Both the position numbers and the translations under genes were made by a program. Shown piece after piece: positions 1 through 16,628 of a stretch of 43,003 bases of DNA. Origin of the DNA: a virus. Lineage: Duplodnaviria > Heunggongvirae > Uroviricota > Caudoviricetes. A model generated the notes under the pieces. That model worked only from the letters and a program-made list of their open reading frames with translations, was not told the origin of the DNA and did not search any database. The DNA is taken from the IMG/VR virus record IMGVR_UViG_641522624_000003; one strand, written 5' to 3'. Position 1 is the first letter of the stretch. Each line of letters begins with the position of its first letter.

Positions 1-798
1 TTAATGAACATTCGTCGCCGAAAACGAGTCTGTATCATTAGTGCGATGCAGTCTCTGCAAAGGATCTTGTTGATAAAATTGGCAGAAACGTTGCCACAAT
101 GAAGGGAAACGAGGAGCAAAAAGTTCTGGGGCGCTAAAGAAATATTCAGAAAGTACGGCAAAACATTCAGCAGGATCACTGGCAGCATAAGCATCAATGC
201 TCGCCGCATTGTCGCCAACCAATTCGATTTCTTCCTGAATGTTGTTCATTGCAGCATGAAGATCGTGTTCCCAGCCAGCAACCTCACGCAACGGAATAAA
301 GGGAACTCCGCTGGCGCGATCGCCGTTACGGGTGTCCAGCTTATGAGCGACTTCATGAATAATCAGGTTAAAACCAGAAGCATCAAAAGAATCTTGTATA
401 TCCAACCAGTTCAAAACGATAGGCCCTTGCTGCCAGCTCTGACCTGACTGAACAATACGTTGGTTATGCACCAGACCGATATCGTCTTCCCATTCATCAT
501 CGACCACAAATGGCGCAGGATAAATTAAGACTTCATGAAAACCATCCAGCCATTCCAGTCCTAACTCCAGAACGGGTAGGCAAAATAGAAGTGCTATCCG
601 GCAGCTTCTTAATGAATCCAGTTCAAAGCCCTGTAAAGGAACAAGCCGCTTTTGCTGTAAAAAACGTTCGGCAAGAGTGACTAATTTGCTTTGTTCCTGT
701 TCCGTCAGACACGTTAAAAGGGGGATCGATAGTGCTTCCTGCCAGGGAAGGGCAGTTTGATGTGCTGATTCTTGTACTTTCCAGGGCCACTTAATCAT
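1..798 (-). CDS. mtfA: Mlc titration factor A (MtfA), host gene flanking the prophage
   Basis: ORF track 1..837 (-). Recalled MtfA sequence starts at the internal Met (MIKWPWK, ATG at 798..796); HExxH-like motif [10 protein letters not shown]; stop codon at 1..3. Confidence 0.85.
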
Positions 799-891
799 CG
801 TTTTGCTCGCAAACTCGTCACTTGAACAAAATTGCACGGACAGGGACTGTTAAAATGCCAAATTTCCTGGCATCATGGCAACCATCTGAAC

Positions 892-981
892 GGAGAGATG
901 CCGGAGCGGCTGAACGGACCGGTCTCGAAAACCGGAGTGGGGGCAACTCCACCGGGGGTTCAAATCCCCCTCTCTCCGCCA
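892..981 (+). tRNA. serU: tRNA-Ser, anticodon CGA (serU-type), probable prophage integration target
   Basis: Cloverleaf read directly: acceptor GGAGAGA/TCTCTCC, anticodon stem CCGGT/ACCGG with loop CTCGAAA (anticodon CGA), long variable arm typical of tRNA-Ser, T-loop GGTTCAAATCC, 3' GCCA. Confidence 0.85.
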
Positions 982-1026
982 AAATTCAATCACTTACACA
1001 TCATTAAGTCAGTGACAAAAATCACA

Positions 1027-1063
1027 CTTGGAATTACTTGGAATATTTTCTTGGAATATTTTC
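1027..1063. repeat. Short direct repeats between tRNA and int (3x CTTGGAAT; tandem 13-bp TTGGAATATTTTC x2); candidate integrase arm-type binding sites of attL
   Basis: Repeats read directly at 1027-1034, 1037-1044, 1050-1057, with tandem 13-mers at 1038-1050 and 1051-1063, immediately 3' of the int stop codon. Confidence 0.4.
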
Positions 1064-2059
1064 AGGTAACGGGACATCAAGTGTTGGTGAAACTTTAACC
1101 TTCCTGTCATAGATTAGCACTTGCCCTTCGGTTTTGTGACCAGAGAAAAGTTGCTTATCCCGGCTGCTTCCTTCATAGTCTGAAATTCCTTTCGCCTTCA
1201 GATCATGAAAGGTGAAGTCGGTTAAAATACCTGAAATTTTTCCAGCACGATTTCTTGCATCTACCCACATTTCGTTAAAGCCTTTGTACATATATCGGTT
1301 GCCGTATTGATTGCTGATCACATAGGCAGATTTTGGTAACTGTTTTGCTTTTTCGATCGCTGCCTGTAATCGTGGACTCCATGCTTTTATCTGTTTTTTT
1401 CCGGTTTTCCCTTGCTGGATGAATATCCCGTCGTTTCCAATCTGTTCCCATTTCAGCGATAACACATCGGAAACCCTCGCTGCACACAGATAGGCAATTT
1501 CCATTGCGATAAAAACAGGAAGAGGTGCAACGCTTAATACTGCCTGGTATTCTTTGTCGGTTACATATCGTTCGCGGTTTTTGGCCTTGAATTTACTTAC
1601 ACCTGCACATGGGTTAGCCTTCACGTACCCTCGCTCATACCCCCAACTGTAAACACGGGACATACTGCTTTTTTCATGGTTGGCTTGCGTTTTACTCTGC
1701 TCCCCTCTTTTGTCCATGTATCGACGGATGTGTTCTGGTTTTATGGAATCCGCTGGTACCTTACCGAATACGGCAAGCAACTTTTTTTGATGTTGCAGAT
1801 AATCTTTTTGTGTTCTTGGACTAAGGTCACTGTAATAGGCGCTGGCGAGGAATTTTTCCCACAAGCGACCGAATGTCATTGCACGATCGCGATTATTTAC
1901 AGTTTCCTCATACTTTTTCCATAAAGCAGCTAAACCATCCTTGATGGCGGTTAGTGTGACAGATTCTCTGGATGTTGGTTTCCATACATAACTATATTTA
2001 TTTGGGTATACATTTGGAGGTAATTTTTCGTGTTCAGGATTTTTCCTTCGTCTTCCCAT
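1034..2059 (-). CDS. int: Tyrosine-type phage integrase
   Basis: ORF track 341 aa; C-terminal catalytic region with R..HxxR..Y pattern (FTFHDLKAKGISDY...GHKTEGQVLIYDRK); sits next to a tRNA gene and an excisionase-like ORF. Confidence 0.85.
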   Translation of the reverse strand: MGRRRKNPEHEKLPPNVYPNKYSYVWKPTSRESVTLTAIKDGLAALWKKYEETVNNRDRAMTFGRLWEKFLASAYYSDLSPRTQKDYLQHQKKLLAVFGKVPADSIKPEHIRRYMDKRGEQSKTQANHEKSSMSRVYSWGYERGYVKANPCAGVSKFKAKNRERYVTDKEYQAVLSVAPLPVFIAMEIAYLCAARVSDVLSLKWEQIGNDGIFIQQGKTGKKQIKAWSPRLQAAIEKAKQLPKSAYVISNQYGNRYMYKGFNEMWVDARNRAGKISGILTDFTFHDLKAKGISDYEGSSRDKQLFSGHKTEGQVLIYDRKVKVSPTLDVPLPENIPRKYSK

Positions 2060-2320: not shown

Positions 2321-4762
2321 TTAAAAATCAGCCTGACTCGGGATCAGTTTTTGCCAGATAGCTGAAACGTATTTTGCCTGGTAACGAGCGTCATCAAGTG
2401 CATTATGGCGCTCACCTTCGAATGGAATAGCCGTTCTGGCATCGAAGTCTATGGCTTTCCCCAGCTCAACGATTGTGCGTACATCGCGATCGTTGTAGTA
2501 ACGCCACGGGCAGGGGATCCCCTGCCGTTCGTATGAACGGCGCAAAATCGTGTTGTCGAAGTTGGCTCCATTTCCCCAAACCTGAACAAAAAATTCACCG
2601 GAGTTTTCGTCGATAAATTCCCGCAATTGTAACAGTGCATCATCTAACGGGATTTCATCGGTCATAATGGCAGATTGCGCTTCGCGTGATTGCTTAAGCC
2701 ACCATTTAATGGTGTCCCGATCAATGACTCCGCCAGCAGTTTCCAGATCGATAGTCTTACTAAATTCCGGTCCCATATCTCCGGTTTGCGGATCGAAAAA
2801 TATTGCACCTATTGAGATGATCGGGGCATCAGGATTTTTTCCCATGGTTTCAAGGTCGATCATTAGATGGTCACACGTCCTGCTGGTGGATGTGATTTCG
2901 TGATGACCGTTCACCTTAATTGGGTGATCTGCCGTCTCGCCAGTTTTATTATCGCTGGCGTGATGCTGATTGCCGCCAGGGTTCTCCTTGTGTGGATGTT
3001 CAGCGCCTTCCATTTCCTCCGGATCATTTTCCTGAACTTCAACCTGATTCTCTTCATCGAATGTTTCCTGGTATGTTGCGTCGCCCATCACCGCGCCACA
3101 ATCAGGGCAGTTGCCGCCACCGCTCTGACCGCAGGCGGTGCAGACTTTTTCCGGTTCCTGTTGCGCTACTGGTTCGGATTGTTTCGTTTCTGGCTCGTTT
3201 TGTAACGCATTTGGGCTGTTTTGTTCCGCTTTTTGGTCGTTCCGTTCCGATTCATGCTGGTTCTGGTTCACAGAATCGCGAGTCTGGATCCCCTTGACCC
3301 ATTTCGGATCATTAGGGTCGCTAATCCCCTCAACAAATTCACCACGCGATACAGCAAGTAACTTATCGGCGTCAGGCTGGCTGATATTGGCTGCCTGCAT
3401 AATTTTGTTTACTTCGTCAGCGGTGACTTTTACTTGGTTAGCGGAACTCACCTGCGACTGAGCATCCAGCGACTGCGCGTTCTGGCCATGTTCAGTTGTA
3501 TCCGGTTCCATTGTTTCAGTTGTTGCCTGTTCACCTGCCATTGCGTCAGATGGTTGTGGTTTTTCTTCTTCTGTTTCACGCTCAGTAACCACCTCGCGGT
3601 TAATTTCTTCCAGGATATCTTTTTCCGGCGTATGCCGGGCAGCTGTGAGAGTTTCCTTGCTGGGGTTCTCGTGATCAGTTTCCGTCAAATAGGCGTTGAT
3701 ATACCCCTGAAGGCGTCCCGGGTAGTGATAAAATTCAGGGTGTGCGCTTCGGATAAGTGCAAAAATAGCGGCGCGGGAATAGTCCAGAATACCCGGGGTT
3801 GCACGAAGTGCTGCGGACCATTCTTTGAACGGACTTTCTTTGTTCAGGACTACTTCTTTTGCGCGACGATAAACGCTGCCCGGAATTTCATAAATATTAA
3901 AATCCATCGGAAGTGTGGCTGCTGCAATCTCCACATCCAGTGTGTCGAGGGTGTGTACTAAATTCGGATTGCGATCGGTTTTGTTCCCACCGCCAGCATT
4001 AGCACCGGAAGCCGTGCGGGTGATGCGTGAAACACGATTTCCTTTCATCCACTCTTTTGTCAGCAGACCCCGATCAGTGTAGTCAGCGTCCAGGTATGCT
4101 TCGAAAAAAGCAGTTATTAGTCCCAGGTCTGAATTACCAGGATTAGGGAAAACTTTGTCAGTGTCACGAACCAGTTTGTGGAGGTCGCGAATCTCCAGCG
4201 AGTCGAGCAGACTGGTTTTATGCGAAATAGCCAGGGCAGTAACAGCCGGTAGTTCTTCAGCCCGTGCAATGTGTAATGCCTGGAGTTCGTCGCGTGAAAC
4301 GTGCGTTACTGGTTTTTCGCTGCCGTGTTGAGCAAGCCAACGAATGGGCAGTTCCTGACCGGAGACAGGCAGAAGCATGCTCTCCTCAATCTCAGTCATG
4401 TCTTCGCCGTTGATGTTGGTATTGTCAGTGCTGGCTGGTTTGTCCTGAACAGAGGGGGAAGGGCCGATAAATGTCATTGTGATGCCATCTTTCCCGCCTT
4501 TTTCATAGCGGTTGCAGAATTCAGTATCAAACACGCCTTCTGGCGGAAGGTCGTCAACAACGGGCAAATTGACGCGGACGGGTTTTTTAAAGTCGTCTTC
4601 ATCATAATCGTTGTCATCCATTGCGGTAATGCAGCGGGAGATTGCAACAGATAATTTTTTTGCTGTAGTCCAGTAAAAACCACCTTTAATTCCCAGGCGT
4701 TTTCTTACTTTGTCATTTTTTGCTTCGCAATATAGTGCAAATTCTTCTTTATCAGTGCTCAT
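2321..4762 (-). CDS. Large phage exonuclease: RecE-N-terminal-like region, central Cys4 zinc ribbon, C-terminal DnaQ-like (DEDDh) 3'-5' exonuclease domain
   Basis: 813-aa ORF. N-terminal segment ([10 protein letters not shown]...[21 protein letters not shown]...) matches my memory of the RecE N-terminal region; [16 protein letters not shown] zinc ribbon; C-terminal [10 protein letters not shown]...WGNGANFD...[10 protein letters not shown] looks like the DnaQ Exo I/II/III motifs. Confidence 0.6.
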
Positions 4763-4855
4763 TATTGGTAAACCTCATCACAGATTTAAGGGTGAACAAA
4801 TCTCTGCCATTGCTGACATATAAGAATGAAACTGGATATTTATTACGGTGCTGTT

Positions 4856-5047
4856 TTAAAATCCTGCCGGGATTTCGTTATTATCCTGGTGAATAACTTT
4901 ATCGACCGGATAACAGTTGCCTGGAATTTTCTGTTCGGTTGCTGCTGCCATACATTCCTGCTTTGTTCTGTGAACACTGACTGCAATATCAACTGGCCCT
5001 CCGGAAACAAGAAAAACCGTCAGAATAAGTGCAAATACTGGATTCAT
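4856..5047 (-). CDS. ydfD: YdfD-like small lysis/membrane protein (63 aa from internal Met MNPVF)
   Basis: ORF track 4856..5101 (-); hydrophobic N-terminus MNPVFALILTVFLVSGG; lies directly downstream of dicB as in the Qin dicB operon. Confidence 0.55.
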   Translation of the reverse strand: MNPVFALILTVFLVSGGPVDIAVSVHRTKQECMAAATEQKIPGNCYPVDKVIHQDNNEIPAGF

Positions 5048-5232
5048 TGTGCACATCCTTTTGGCATCAGACGTAAACGGGCCAGCATTGAAACAATGCA
5101 TACTTTATTTAATAACTCCCGTTCGTGTTTTCTTTTGTTAATGGCATCTTCAGTAAATACAGGATTACTGATAGTGACACCAATTTCAAAACAACCTTCA
5201 GACGTATTAACGTTTGGTAATAACGTTTTCAT
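5044..5232 (-). CDS. dicB: Cell-division inhibitor DicB
   Basis: 62-aa product MKTLLPNVNTSEGCFEIGVTISNPVFTEDAINKRK.ERELLNK.CIVSMLARLRLMPKGCAQ, recalled as near-identical to E. coli DicB; start at the internal Met of track ORF 5044..5337. Confidence 0.8.
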   Translation of the reverse strand: MKTLLPNVNTSEGCFEIGVTISNPVFTEDAINKRKHERELLNKVCIVSMLARLRLMPKGCAQ

Positions 5233-5401
5233 TATCGCGCCCTCAACAATGAGTTTTGTGATGCGGTGCCTGGTGCCTCCAGGTGACGTTAACCAGTTAA
5301 CAATTAACGCCGGATACAGAGAATCCACCCATAACACTGTTTTTGGTTTTAACTGTTCCGCGTGCGCTTAGCCGCATTCACCGCATCACAAAATTCACTT
5401 T

Positions 5402-5459
5402 AAAAAGGGCGGCAGAGCAGTCACGGAGTAAAACTGATACCGCCAAACGTCACCAGAAA
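5402..5459 (-). ncRNA. dicF: DicF small regulatory RNA
   Basis: Minus-strand sequence TTTCTGGTGACGTTTGGCGGTATCAGTTTTACTCCGTGACTGCTCTGCCGCCCTTTTT matches my memory of DicF including its terminal hairpin and U-tail; located between ydfC and dicB. Confidence 0.8.
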
Positions 5460-5799
5460 ATTGATAACAGAGGGCGTTGCAGCGGGGTTGTCACTTAAGC
5501 GTATGGTCAACCTGACAACCCGGTGTCCTCAACGGGGAAGGAATAACCCCGCCATACTTACCGCCGCGCCATTTCGCGGAGTGCCACAACCGGAAGCGCA
5601 CGGTCGACGAAAATTTAACGACAGGCTATCTATGAACCAGCTACCTCGCCGTGCGCTTTCGCGTTATGGTCTGACTTTTCAGGGAAATATCCTTTCAGTA
5701 AACTGTCAGTGCCGGATGCTCACCCGTGTCCGGCGCACGCACTCCACCTCACCCGTGGAGAACTCCTTAATTACCAACCTTAGCTTCGTTGGTTAGCTA

Positions 5800-6018
5800 T
5801 TAACGCGGGTATGTAATCATTCTGGCAATGCTTAATGCCGCTGCTTTTTCCAGATTGGTGATATCCTGCTCCAGAGCGGACAGATTTTCAGCCTGCTTAG
5901 CCCTGGCTTCATTAGCCCATTTCAGATCCTGCGCTGCATTAATTTTCTGGCGCATCCACTCATAAAGTTCATCATCGGTATAGTCTGGCGCGATTATGAC
6001 GGGTTCTCGTTTCTGCAT
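5800..6018 (-). CDS. ydfC: YdfC-like protein (72 aa)
   Basis: ORF track 72 aa (MQKREPVIIAPDYTDDELYEWMRQ...); position and size match ydfC of the dicB operon. Confidence 0.6.
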   Translation of the reverse strand: MQKREPVIIAPDYTDDELYEWMRQKINAAQDLKWANEARAKQAENLSALEQDITNLEKAAALSIARMITYPR

Positions 6019-6047
6019 ACTGATTCCTCGCGGTGCTACTTCGCTTA

Positions 6048-6176
6048 TCAGCCGTTAGATTTTGCCGAGCTGGAAAGCGCCTGTTTAAACTCACTGAAGC
6101 TGAGAGCTTCTTCGCCTTCGGCAAGGTCTTCGAAGTATTCTTCGTAAGCCTTTTCCATGATTGCGTCGAAATCCAT
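6048..6176 (-). CDS. ydfB: YdfB-like small acidic protein (42 aa)
   Basis: Hand-translated minus-strand ORF MDFDAIMEKAYEEYFEDLAEGEEALSFSEFKQALSSSAKSNG; below the 60-aa cutoff of the ORF track; start codon abuts the ydfA stop. Confidence 0.55.
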   Translation of the reverse strand: MDFDAIMEKAYEEYFEDLAEGEEALSFSEFKQALSSSAKSNG

Positions 6177-6177
6177 A

Positions 6178-6333
6178 TCACTCACCTGAATTTCTTTCCA
6201 GCCAGCGACGCGCGTCAGATTCGGTTTTAAACGTTTTACTTCTGGTATACGTCATGGCGGTGAATGTGCCGTCCTGGTTGGGGAACACACCACATACCAG
6301 AGATTCGCTGTTGCCAAGATCGATAGTATCCAT
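6178..6333 (-). CDS. ydfA: YdfA-like protein (51 aa from internal Met MDTIDL)
   Basis: ORF track 6178..6438 (-) opens with TTG; the internal ATG gives a 51-aa product matching the size of ydfA. It is the first gene of the leftward operon downstream of a DicA operator copy. Confidence 0.55.
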   Translation of the reverse strand: MDTIDLGNSESLVCGVFPNQDGTFTAMTYTRSKTFKTESDARRWLERNSGE

Positions 6334-6448
6334 GCTGACCTCATTACCCCTTAACGCCGGGTAGCGGAACTGTTTGCTGAGAACACCGTGCGGTGTCTTG
6401 ATGGGTGGTAATTTAGTTTTCTCATGAATGTTGGTCAAGCATTTTTAA

Positions 6449-6461
6449 TGAGAAAACTCAA
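6449..6461. promoter_or_regulatory. Palindromic operator-like site TGAGAAAACTCAA (copy 1), upstream of the dicB-operon genes
   Basis: 13-bp element with inverted halves TGAG/CTCA around AAAA; an identical copy lies in the dicA-dicC intergenic region. Confidence 0.45.
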
Positions 6462-6522
6462 TATTTAATGCAAAATAAAGCCAATACATTGAAATGTAAG
6501 GCTTTAAAATTTGTGAAGGGGG

Positions 6523-6930
6523 TTACTGATGTTTGTTACGTTTGCGAGCTTCTAGTAGCTCGGTGAATAGGCGATTAAAATTCTCAACGCGGGCACGGAG
6601 TTCGCTGATTTGTGCTTGCTGCTCTGATTTTGGAAGTGCGCGATACAATCGCAACATCTCCAACTCATCTTCCGATAAGTCTAAGGCGCTGTTGAGTGCT
6701 ACTGGTGGATCTGGTGTTTTATCCTCGTCACCAAACAGTATCCAAGTTGGTGAACATTGCAATACCTCAGCCAGGCGATGCAAATTTTGCCCGCGCGGGG
6801 CTGTATGGTCGCTTTCCCATAGTGAAATTGATGAGCCAGATACGCCAGCGGCTTTGCTTAAATCGTTTTGACTTAAACCAACCTGTTTGCGTCTTTCTCT
6901 AATTCGTTGACCTAAAGTTTTCTCGTTCAT
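6523..6930 (-). CDS. dicA: DicA-like HTH (XRE-family) repressor
   Basis: 135-aa ORF with N-terminal HTH (LGQRIRERRKQVGLSQNDLSKAAGVSGSSISLWE) and C-terminal segment LQCSPTWILFGDEDK recalled from DicA; divergent from a DicC-like gene. Confidence 0.8.
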   Translation of the reverse strand: MNEKTLGQRIRERRKQVGLSQNDLSKAAGVSGSSISLWESDHTAPRGQNLHRLAEVLQCSPTWILFGDEDKTPDPPVALNSALDLSEDELEMLRLYRALPKSEQQAQISELRARVENFNRLFTELLEARKRNKHQ

Positions 6931-6981
6931 ATTTAGATATCTTAATAACCCTTGACTTGAGATTCCTTGAATGATTACTAT

Positions 6982-6994
6982 TGAGAAAACTCAA
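6982..6994. promoter_or_regulatory. Palindromic operator-like site TGAGAAAACTCAA (copy 2), in the dicA-dicC divergent promoter region
   Basis: Exact second copy of the 13-bp element, overlapping the 5' region of the dicC-like gene. Confidence 0.45.
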
Positions 6995-7007
6995 CTTTGG
7001 AGGGGTG

Positions 7008-7235
7008 ATGTTTAAATCAGACGTAATTAATTTTTATGGGACGAAAGCCAAAGTAGCGAAAGCTGCTGGTGTTGATCCATCTGCTGTTTCTCAATGGGGG
7101 GAACTGGTTCCTGAAGGTCGCGCGATGCGCCTGCAAGAGGCATCCGGCGGGGAACTTCAGTACGACCCCAAAGTTTATGACGAATATCGTAAGGCAAAGC
7201 GGGCGGGGCGGTTGAACAATGAAAATCACCCCTGA
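7008..7235 (+). CDS. dicC: DicC-like Cro-type regulator
   Basis: Product contains LVPEGRAMRLQEASGGELQYDPKVYDEYRKAKRAGRLNNEN, recalled as DicC-like; start taken at the internal ATG of track ORF 6981..7235. Confidence 0.7.
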   Translation: MFKSDVINFYGTKAKVAKAAGVDPSAVSQWGELVPEGRAMRLQEASGGELQYDPKVYDEYRKAKRAGRLNNENHP

Positions 7236-7770
7236 ACAGGTTTGTGAGGCTCTGGATGCCTGGGTATGTCGACCAGGAATGACACAGGAGCAAGCGACGA
7301 TATTAATCACGGAAGCATTCTGGGCTCTGAAAGAACGCCCGAACATCGATGTTCAACGCGTCACGTTTAATGATGGCGAGGTTGATCAACGGGCGCTGGG
7401 CGTTAACCGGGTGAAGATATTCGAACGCTGGAAAGCTATCGACACCAGGGATAAGCGGAAAAAATTCACGGCGCTGATTCCGGCAATTATGGAGGCTATC
7501 CGAATTAGTGATTTCAGGTTGTATCGTGAGATCAGTGATGGAAAAAGCATTACGTACATGATCGCCGGATTAAACAAAGAATATGGCGATGTGGTGGAGT
7601 CCGGGCTGCTTTTTGCGGATCCAGCTGTTGTGGAACGTGAGACTGACGAGCTTATAGAAAAAGCTATTGCTTTCAAGCATGCGTATCGTCAGCAATATCA
7701 ATATTACTTTGCAGATAAACAAATGTCTGCCAGGGGTTTGTATGAGTATCGATGCACTACGATGGGCTAA
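7219..7770 (+). CDS. YdaT-like phage regulatory protein (putative)
   Basis: 183-aa ORF after the cro-like gene; segment KIFERW...ALIPAIMEAI resembles my recollection of YdaT-family proteins; a CII-type role is possible by position. Confidence 0.4.
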   Translation: MKITPEQVCEALDAWVCRPGMTQEQATILITEAFWALKERPNIDVQRVTFNDGEVDQRALGVNRVKIFERWKAIDTRDKRKKFTALIPAIMEAIRISDFRLYREISDGKSITYMIAGLNKEYGDVVESGLLFADPAVVERETDELIEKAIAFKHAYRQQYQYYFADKQMSARGLYEYRCTTMG

Positions 7771-16318: not shown

Positions 16319-16394
16319 GGCCCTTTAGCTCAGTGGTGAGAGCGAGCGACTCATAATCGCCAGGTCGCTGGTTCAAATCCAGCAAGGGCCACCA
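16319..16394 (+). tRNA. tRNA with anticodon CAU (Met or lysidine-dependent Ile2)
   Basis: 76-nt cloverleaf: acceptor GGCCCTT/AAGGGCC, D stem GCTC/GAGC, anticodon loop CTCATAA, T-loop GCTGG-TTCAAAT-CCAGC, 3' ACCA. Confidence 0.7.
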
Positions 16395-16395
16395 G

Positions 16396-16472
16396 CCGCC
16401 ACTAGCTCATCAGGAAAGAGCGTCAACCCTTTAAGTTGAGTGTGCGAGGTTCGAGTCCCCGGTGGCGGTCCA
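16396..16472 (+). tRNA. tRNA with atypical anticodon loop CCTTTAA (C at position 33); nominal anticodon UUU, Arg(UCU)-like backbone; isotype uncertain
   Basis: 77-nt cloverleaf: acceptor CCGCCAC/GTGGCGG, D stem GCTC/GAGC, anticodon stem TCAAC/GTTGA, T-loop CGAGG-TTCGAGT-CCCCG, 3' TCCA. Confidence 0.5.
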
Positions 16473-16474
16473 GT

Positions 16475-16550
<76 letters not shown>

Positions 16551-16553
16551 TAT

Positions 16554-16628
<75 letters not shown>

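Follow-up and report, generated by a model that had tools for sequence, protein, structure and literature searches.

The closest described counterpart of the locus analysed here is the dicB operon of Qin, a cryptic prophage of Escherichia coli K-12, whose small RNA DicF receives its 5' end from RNase E and its 3' end either from termination, which gives a 53-nt form, or from RNase III, which gives a 72-nt form (PMC5069750; PMC9438474). In the MG1655 record, ydfC ends at 1649041 and dicF starts at 1649382, so that the reference Qin has a gap of 340 nt between the two genes. A gap of the same length is present in the IMG/VR record IMGVR_UViG_641522624_000003, a Caudoviricetes sequence of 43,003 nt, the whole of which is referred to below as the window, and in which the minus strand carries the dicB block (6333..4856) in the order ydfA-ydfB-ydfC, 340-nt spacer, DicF, dicB and ydfD. 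The subject of this study is the 3' third of that spacer, a stretch of 115 nt (5590..5476, minus strand) which is named here module C and which folds into a four-way junction with a pseudoknot. Module C is a conserved non-coding structured RNA that has not been described previously, and no description of it was found in the literature searched.

Three kinds of known RNA systems resemble module C in part. RNA-only antitermination is established for the put RNAs of phage HK022 (PMC9378689), and the record of phage HK639 annotates a putL-like RNA of 126 nt. The put phages are lambdoid phages without a functional N protein (PMC9378689; HK639 annotation), which they share with the module C loci, where no N was detected. 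Both RNAs are cis-encoded and structured (about 70-126 nt for put) and lie in an early operon upstream of terminators; however, put consists of two stem-loops, as opposed to the four-way junction and pseudoknot of module C. Read-through by put takes place in cis and depends on the zinc-binding domain of the beta' subunit of RNA polymerase. Homology between them was rejected, as the covariance model of module C described below (R1) detected no match either in the immunity region of HK022 (threshold E<=1) or in HK639 (threshold E<=10), and the predicted fold of the HK639 RNA differs. The eps-associated RNA (EAR) of Bacillales, said to have been described by Irnov and Winkler in 2010, is reportedly a structured, pseudoknotted RNA of about 120 nt which lies between the genes of an operon and promotes read-through of downstream terminators. 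Its placement is similar to that of module C between ydfC and dicF, while host and sequence are unrelated, and the two may be alike in function. Transcriptional riboswitches, finally, also combine a compact multi-helix junction and a tertiary loop contact directly upstream of an intrinsic terminator. For module C, no conserved mutually exclusive pairing with the terminator and no Rfam riboswitch match were found, and no ligand is suggested. The only conserved competing pairing found is located upstream and does not involve the terminator (CAUAAC or CACAAC against GUUGUG), and a search for conserved pairing between domain and terminator found none, since GGCGGUA recurs in the lambdoid types but not in phage P1 and CCGCU/GGCGG is not conserved.

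Copies of module C were collected from IMG/VR, from a set with one genome per species and from metagenomes, and R1 was built from 33 gap-free copies. The model recovers module C in every such locus with 65-163 bits, the window copy scoring 163. The closing helix, P1, encloses three arms, namely H1, P2-H2 and H3, and the elements of the fold in the window are as follows (all minus strand).

5590..5583 with 5483..5476: closing helix P1, GUUGUGGC with GCUGCAAC
5579..5575 with 5568..5564: helix H1, CCGCG with CGCGG
5562..5560 with 5524..5522: helix P2, GGU with ACC
5551..5547 with 5537..5533: helix H2, CGGGG with CCCCG, loop UUAUUCCUU
5521..5513 with 5493..5485: helix H3, GGGUUGUCA with UGACAACCC, 19-nt loop
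5557..5552 with 5506..5501: pseudoknot, GUAUGG in the P2-H2 internal loop with CCAUAC in the H3 loop

Across 66 distinct sequences, 97.0% of the cells are paired. Compensatory changes, in which both sides of a pair differ, occur in 15 of the 36 pairs, compared with 4.6±1.4 in column shuffles (0 of 500 reached the observed number) and 1-6 pairs in slid controls, for which the partners were moved by 1-3 columns. Such changes are seen in five helices. In H2 all five pairs covary, the variants including CUGGGG/CUCCAG, CAGGUG/CACCUG, CGAGG/CCUCG, UGGUG/CACCA and, in phage P1, CUGGG/CCCAG, and H3 is rewritten throughout in one locus, L159 (GGAUCACCA/UGGUGAUCC). Two of these elements, P2 (U-A 61, C-G 3, U·G 1) and the pseudoknot (U-A 60, C-G 4, U·G 2), are outside the covariance model, and the alignment was therefore not fitted to them. 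The hairpin that the initial annotation had quoted as an example (GGGTTGTCA...TGACAACCC, 5485-5493 and 5513-5521) is real and is among the helices backed by compensatory changes. Since the retrieval patterns demanded parts of the H3 loop and of the linker that follows module C, the invariance of both is partly a matter of construction; the copy in phage P1, which was found by BLAST alone, retains the H3 loop and the linker. Taken as a whole, module C is an autonomous RNA domain kept by compensatory substitutions on the transcribed strand.

Other pairings were considered and discarded. A helix proposed by RNAalifold between GGU (5562..5560) and a GCU of the H3 loop was replaced by P2 (GGU/ACC), for which U-A to C-G double changes occur in three backgrounds, and an H-type pseudoknot between the H2 loop UCCUU and a downstream GAGGA is not conserved in the variants. 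Resemblances to nut-like boxA/boxB and rrn boxA/boxC elements (GUGCUCUUU, CCCUGAAAA and GUUGUGG), which were noted by eye, fall within predicted helices and are not retained from one type to another. In two loci, L058 and L135, the long helix of the upstream module and the 5' arm of helix P1 are deleted and CACACAAC is joined straight to H1, so that the closing helix is unable to form there.

The strand on which the domain acts can be read from the wobble pairs. The paired cells contain 250 G·U against 34 A·C, which assigns the structure to the DicF strand, as the pairing of 97.4% on the sense strand would fall to 89.0% on the antisense strand. The direction of transcription is also fixed independently by the contexts in phage P1 and phage cdtI. 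Regarding known RNA families, a scan of 4500-7300 with Rfam 15 gave no match to the spacer at E<=1, and at E<=10 the region 5440-5810 contained chance-level matches only (mascRNA, E 3.8; snoRNA, E 7.2). As the variant from Erwinia is likewise unmatched, assignment of the spacer to a known family was rejected. ARAGORN called no tRNA-like gene in the spacer or in six related loci.

The folding energy of the complete region is less informative in this respect. The transcribed strand (411 nt) folds with z = -3.2, and 0 of 100 shuffles are as stable; the opposite strand comes close to this (z = -3.0), so that stability by itself does not tell the two strands apart. Partial matches divide the spacer, in DicF orientation from 5799, into three modules, A (about 21-120), B (about 121-215) and C (about 210-332). 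In modules A and B the hairpins CUCCAC/GUGGAG (5760..5742) and GCCGGA/UCCGGC (5734..5711) are predicted, as well as a long helix between CAUAAC (5668..5663) and GUUGUG (5590..5585), the apex of which is variable although the sequence is conserved. GUUGUG is both the 3' end of this long helix and part of the closing helix as its 5' arm, so it can be claimed by the upstream CAUAAC or CACAAC and by the downstream GCUGCAAC or CCACAAC. Modules A and B may serve to insulate module C or may compete for pairing with the GUUGUG of helix P1. Their hairpins are stable but have no covariation support, the covariation term of RNAalifold being 0.03 in 44 variants. The initial annotation had treated the whole spacer as a structured segment that might encode another RNA element. 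This view holds for the 3' 115 nt, on the grounds of covariation, strand specificity and conservation as far as phage P1, but not for the 5' part of about 210 nt, which shows no covariation.

The leaders in front of module C vary considerably. Those of the cdtI and Erwinia type have the same architecture with a quite different stem sequence (CAACGAUGAGAGCAUUG...CAGUGCUCUCUUCGUUG). In two loci, one of them from Erwinia tracheiphila (L146, about 4440-4530; the other is L051), the apex of the long helix carries two T-loop-like hairpins (GGUUCGAUUCC, GUCCGUUCAAUUCGGAC), for which neither an ARAGORN tRNA nor an Rfam match was obtained. Five further loci (L004, L020, L030, L058, L059) possess an alternative leader upstream of module B with two direct repeats of UGUUGUUGGGGAAUA, followed by a possible H-type pseudoknot (CCAC-CUC-GCCUG-AC-GUGG-UUAAAAG-CAGGC). 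The opposite strand of these repeats is (AAC)n, which resembles an Hfq-binding motif.

The spacer is widespread. Whole or in part, it occurs in 4325 of 5426 complete E. coli genomes (about 80%), K-12 included, at up to eight places each; most copies are more than 95% identical, and RefSeq annotation is absent in 29 of 30 of the matches listed. Module C itself was found in prophages of Escherichia coli, E. albertii, E. ruysiae, Shigella, Citrobacter, Trabulsiella and Erwinia tracheiphila, and in phage P1. The copies from phage P1, Erwinia, Trabulsiella and Citrobacter are 65-90% identical, with invariant loops and rewritten stems. In the phages cdtI, Ayreon, 2H10 and the Stx2c phages, module C stands alone, about 300-350 nt after cI/pL; in cdtI, Stx2c and Ayreon no open reading frame (ORF) lies between pL and module C, and a terminator follows after 9 nt. 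In the phages P1 and P7, it is located about 25 nt past the C1-controlled promoter Pban and is followed by a terminator, tRNA genes and ban. The sequence 68727-68841 of phage P1 is a module C with H1, P2, H2, H3 and the pseudoknot, including compensatory differences. It overlaps what the P1 record (AF234172) calls a 'dicF-like region', in the leader of the ban operon. The copy in phage P1 lacks the closing helix as well as a DicF seed, and the record annotates a sequence similarity only (68791-68892), neither a fold nor a function. Outside the Enterobacterales, the only group in which module C was otherwise seen, a part of it occurs with 85.6% identity in the Actinobacillus phage vB_Apl-pPE4 (PP818812.1, 6151-6254), a phage attributed to Actinobacillus pleuropneumoniae, which is an unexpected host.

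The position of module C relative to a terminator is a further constant. In 82 of 83 distinct downstream flanks, an intrinsic terminator consisting of a hairpin and a U-tract lies 46-128 nt downstream. In Qin-type copies this terminator is DicF itself, as opposed to the cdtI type, in which 9 nt separate helix P1 from the terminator and a DicF seed is missing. Beyond the terminator follow genes that are required once the prophage is induced, namely dicB, the exonuclease and int in the window, and tRNAs and ban in phage P1. Between repressor and module C, an N gene was not detected in Qin, the window, EBJ003, mEp460_ev081, HannyBb, Ayreon, cdtI or Stx2c; as with put, module C thus precedes a terminator in the early operon of phages without a detected N. 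The N-annotated phages phiSTEC1589-Stx1c and PhiR5_2 have kept modules A and B and the DicF-like terminator, while the core of module C is deleted. The deletion runs exactly between GUUGUG and CAAC (GGUUGUG-AAUAA-CAAC; L005, 2690-2730, and L235).

Our preferred reading, which we hold tentatively, is that module C may be a cis-acting leader RNA that controls terminator read-through, with a function like that of put or EAR and a new fold. It would act in cis on the transcribing RNA polymerase and set the frequency with which the polymerase reads past the DicF terminator into dicB, ydfD, the exonuclease gene and int, and such an RNA-only antitermination device would serve early operons that have no N protein. 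Terminated transcripts would be cut by RNase E between AA and UUU, 15 nt past module C, to yield the 53-nt DicF, whereas read-through transcripts would yield DicB. Module C would then be a candidate for how N-less lambdoid phages pass the terminator heading the early-left operon, and a candidate for what sets the balance between two cell-division inhibitors, DicF made by termination and DicB made by read-through. The arrangement also hints that the RNA unit is the older of the two and that DicF arose in its tail. Rather doubtful is the broader proposal that module C founds a third, structurally distinct class of phage RNA-only antiterminators or read-through controllers, with N-less lambdoid prophages and the phage P1 ban operon as its users, and that DicF arose in its expression platform, which would tie the output of DicF and DicB to the state of the RNA.

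A number of points weigh against the read-through reading. A single copy of module C was found per phage, whereas HK022 has put sites in both early operons, and in Qin-type operons about 750 nt and three ORFs separate module C from the promoter. There is no similarity to the HK022 and HK639 put RNAs. No further strong terminators were detected downstream in the window, which leaves little for processivity to act on. The proposed role is argued from position and from a correlation with the lack of N that is based on a small number of annotated genomes; N proteins form a diverse group, and the tblastn search that hit 0 of 233 module C loci used only two N types as queries, those of phiSTEC1589-Stx1c and PhiR5_2. 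With regard to the structure, the copies behind the covariation counts are related prophages, so that the changes cannot be taken as independent of one another, the pairs of the nested helices were scored on an alignment fitted to the model, and module C by itself is only modestly stable (z = -2.0; 7 of 200 shuffles fold as well).

Among the other explanations, a role in processing and stability is conceivable but unlikely. Here, module C would guide RNase E to the AA/UUU site and then shield the upstream ydfABC fragment from degradation by 3' exonucleases; stable structures at newly formed 3' ends are common stabilisers. The idea that the spacer directs the processing of DicF comes from the initial annotation. 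The DicF 5' end indeed lies 15 nt past helix P1 in an A/U-rich single-stranded linker, AA/UUU fits the preference of RNase E, and the origin of this end from RNase E is documented (PMC5069750; PMC9438474). However, the phages of the cdtI and Stx2c type, with only 9 nt from module to terminator, lack a DicF-like seed that could be released, cdtI, Stx2c and phage P1 have no gene upstream that would need protection, and invariant loops together with a pseudoknot exceed what a simple 3' stabiliser requires. Release of DicF cannot be the general role of module C, given the cdtI/Stx2c-type phages and phage P1, which have no DicF seed. We consider it quite unlikely, too, that module C is a separate, trans-acting early non-coding RNA, either a protein decoy or a base-pairing RNA with a C/U-rich H2 loop, in whose tail before the terminator DicF evolved. 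The layout in phage P1 (promoter, about 25 nt, domain, about 60 nt, terminator) corresponds to a discrete RNA gene of about 200 nt, the H2 loop is usually UCCUU or CCUCC, and the H3 loop, part of which was required by the search patterns, is invariant across the lambdoid and P1 lineages in the manner of a binding surface. On the other hand, some variants lack the motif of the H2 loop (L174, for instance, has GUUCAUGUAAU), a stable transcript of the region is not described in the literature searched, and Qin-type operons carry the domain inside a polycistronic mRNA.

The spacer, and especially modules A and B, could instead work on the opposite strand as the promoter or 5' leader of a gene expressed in the lysogen (gene X), and would then be left over in the window, where ydfC replaced gene X. 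A gene of 64-105 amino acids does start exactly at the 5' edge of the spacer with a Shine-Dalgarno sequence and ATG in many loci, and two of the gene X proteins match the PHROGs phrog_34441 (E 1.5e-50) and phrog_4987 (E 3.1e-49), both without known function. An antisense promoter-like sequence, TTAACA-16-GAGAAT, is present on the plus strand of the window (5297-5324) and conserved in L019 (4427-4454) and L050 (12302-12329), but the match is weak (9/12) and not more common than in shuffles. Together with the strand bias of the pairing in module C (97.4% sense, 89.0% antisense), the lack of such a gene in the contexts of phage P1 and cdtI and its absence from the window, this makes the explanation improbable. 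It is more improbable still that the spacer is a functionless remnant whose conservation reflects the recent horizontal spread of near-identical segments and whose hairpins are incidental. Such an origin would agree with the identity of more than 95% among most copies, the lack of covariation in modules A and B, the about equal folding of the two strands and the z of only -2.0 for module C alone. It does not agree with the compensatory changes in five helices, two of them outside the alignment model, with the retention of the domain at 65-90% identity and with invariant loops in phage P1, Erwinia, Trabulsiella and Citrobacter, or with the fixed position relative to the terminator. Protein coding, lastly, is scarcely credible, although one plus-strand frame of 111 codons (5461-5796) is open across the whole spacer and coding sequences are annotated here as hypothetical in a few phage records. 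This frame starts with TTG and is open over at least 100 codons in only 31 of 118 variants, it contains indels of 1 and 2 nt, the length of module C ranges from 115 to 130 nt with differences that are not multiples of three, and no codon periodicity is seen at the variable sites, where third positions are not in excess (p = 0.48 and 0.92). The indels, the broken ORF and the lack of periodicity led us to rule out coding on either strand, and RefSeq, as mentioned, leaves nearly all of the matches listed unannotated.

To place module C in its genomic context, the features of the window surrounding it were called using the ORF listing, Pfam, PHROGs and Rfam. The operon is encoded by the minus strand, and the features are listed here in the order of their transcription, preceded by the two regulators.

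6981..7235, plus strand: Cro/DicC-like regulator, divergent from the repressor (Pfam P22_Cro, E 1.4e-17)
6523..6930, minus strand: DicA-family repressor, HTH_3 (Pfam HTH_3, E 1.2e-16; 55.6% identity to K-12 DicA)
6178..6333, minus strand: ydfA, DUF1391 (Pfam E 2.8e-26; 46 of 51 residues identical to K-12 YdfA; the computed identity of 88.5% is from a comparison in which the window sequence had one extra residue)
6048..6185, minus strand: ydfB (40 of 42 residues identical to K-12 YdfB; phrog_2061)
5800..6018, minus strand: ydfC (100% identity to K-12 YdfC; phrog_1744)
5591..5799, minus strand: spacer modules A and B (conserved sequence, predicted hairpins)
5476..5590, minus strand: module C, four-way-junction RNA of 115 nt (covariance model R1, 163 bits)
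5460..5475, minus strand: single-stranded linker GCCCUCUGUUAUCAA up to the DicF 5' end (read from the sequence)
5407..5459, minus strand: DicF small RNA with intrinsic terminator hairpin (Rfam RF00039, 76.7 bits, E 1.6e-16)
5255..5395, minus strand: DicF-dicB spacer (sub-threshold likeness to STnc100)
5044..5232, minus strand: dicB (Pfam DicB, E 5.1e-40; 96.8% identity to K-12 DicB)
4856..5047, minus strand: ydfD, DUF1482 (Pfam E 6.7e-25; 85.7% identity to K-12 YdfD)
2321..4762, minus strand: exonuclease of 813 amino acids with Exonuc_VIII and 3'-5' exoribonuclease domains, the next gene in the same direction
2059..1034, minus strand: integrase, intact, after the exonuclease
892-981: tRNA-Ser(cga), the integration site of the prophage

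The interval is a hetero-immune copy of the Qin-type dicBF early-left operon in a lambdoid prophage at tRNA-Ser. A complete Qin-type dicB operon with an untranslated stretch at 5460-5799 had been claimed by the initial annotation, and ORFs, family matches and identity to K-12 confirm both: the six elements are in their places on the minus strand, and the stretch comprises exactly 340 nt. DicF reaches 76.7 bits against a gathering score of 48 in Rfam, with a full-length match (1-52) that includes the terminator hairpin, whose U-tract extends to about 5402, and DicB (PF05358) reaches 135.4 bits against a cut-off of 27 in Pfam over residues 1-62 of 62. The DicF-dicB spacer falls short of membership in STnc100 (RF02076), as it scores 38.8 bits (E 2.9e-6) where the gathering score is 47. 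STnc100 and PasD small RNAs of the phage late region are connected with each other in a 2026 preprint. The Pas and STnc100 RNAs were considered as relatives of the locus and dismissed, as they map to the Q/lysis region and are unrelated.

Compared with Qin, the gene order is the same, and 4771-6403 of the window is 95.5% identical at the DNA level over 1.63 kb, the dicB block being collinear with NC_000913 1648508-1649985. The spacer matches the K-12 ydfC-dicF spacer in 332 of 340 bases with zero indels, and since the MG1655 record has the same 340 nt, an insertion relative to K-12 was ruled out. Judged by sequence, the operon, including its long untranslated region, is the K-12 reference arrangement and already known. 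In contrast to Qin, the prophage of the window has an intact integrase at tRNA-Ser, its promoter and operator region is unrelated and its repressor has diverged. The part homologous to Qin extends up to 6403, immediately downstream of a promoter-like site on the minus strand before ydfA (TTGACC-17-TAAATT, 6438..6410, found by its match to the consensus). The operator-like 13-nt motif TGAGAAAACTCAA occurs in four copies (6412-6424, 6448-6461, 6916-6927, 6982-6994), of which two flank the promoter-like site of ydfA as an inverted pair (region 6410..6462) and two lie in the repressor/cro control region. This common motif suggests that a single local repressor controls the ydfA promoter and its own region. 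The control by DicA that had been assumed for the operon thus applies by analogy only and not for DicA itself, because the repressor, at 55.6% identity, is a hetero-immune relative.

Some observations on the surroundings of the operon may be added. At the other end of the locus, the prophage adjoins an mtfA-like host gene at tRNA-Ser(cga) (window 1-2059), and a cluster of four tRNAs (Met, Lys, Thr, Gly) is located within the prophage at 16319-16628. In many related prophages, ydfC is swapped for the variable opposite-strand gene of 64-105 amino acids, with the Shine-Dalgarno sequence and ATG abutting the spacer (L019, plus strand, about 4945-5150; L050; L113; L012; L148, 2242-2442, minus strand; L236, 2728-2928, minus strand). 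In one type, the Shine-Dalgarno sequence is inside a CUCCAUU...AAUGGAG hairpin, and the position of the gene recalls the sieB-like moron slot of pL operons. The antisense sequence TTAACA-16-GAGAAT sits between dicB and DicF, and if it were active, its transcript would run antisense to DicF through the whole spacer.

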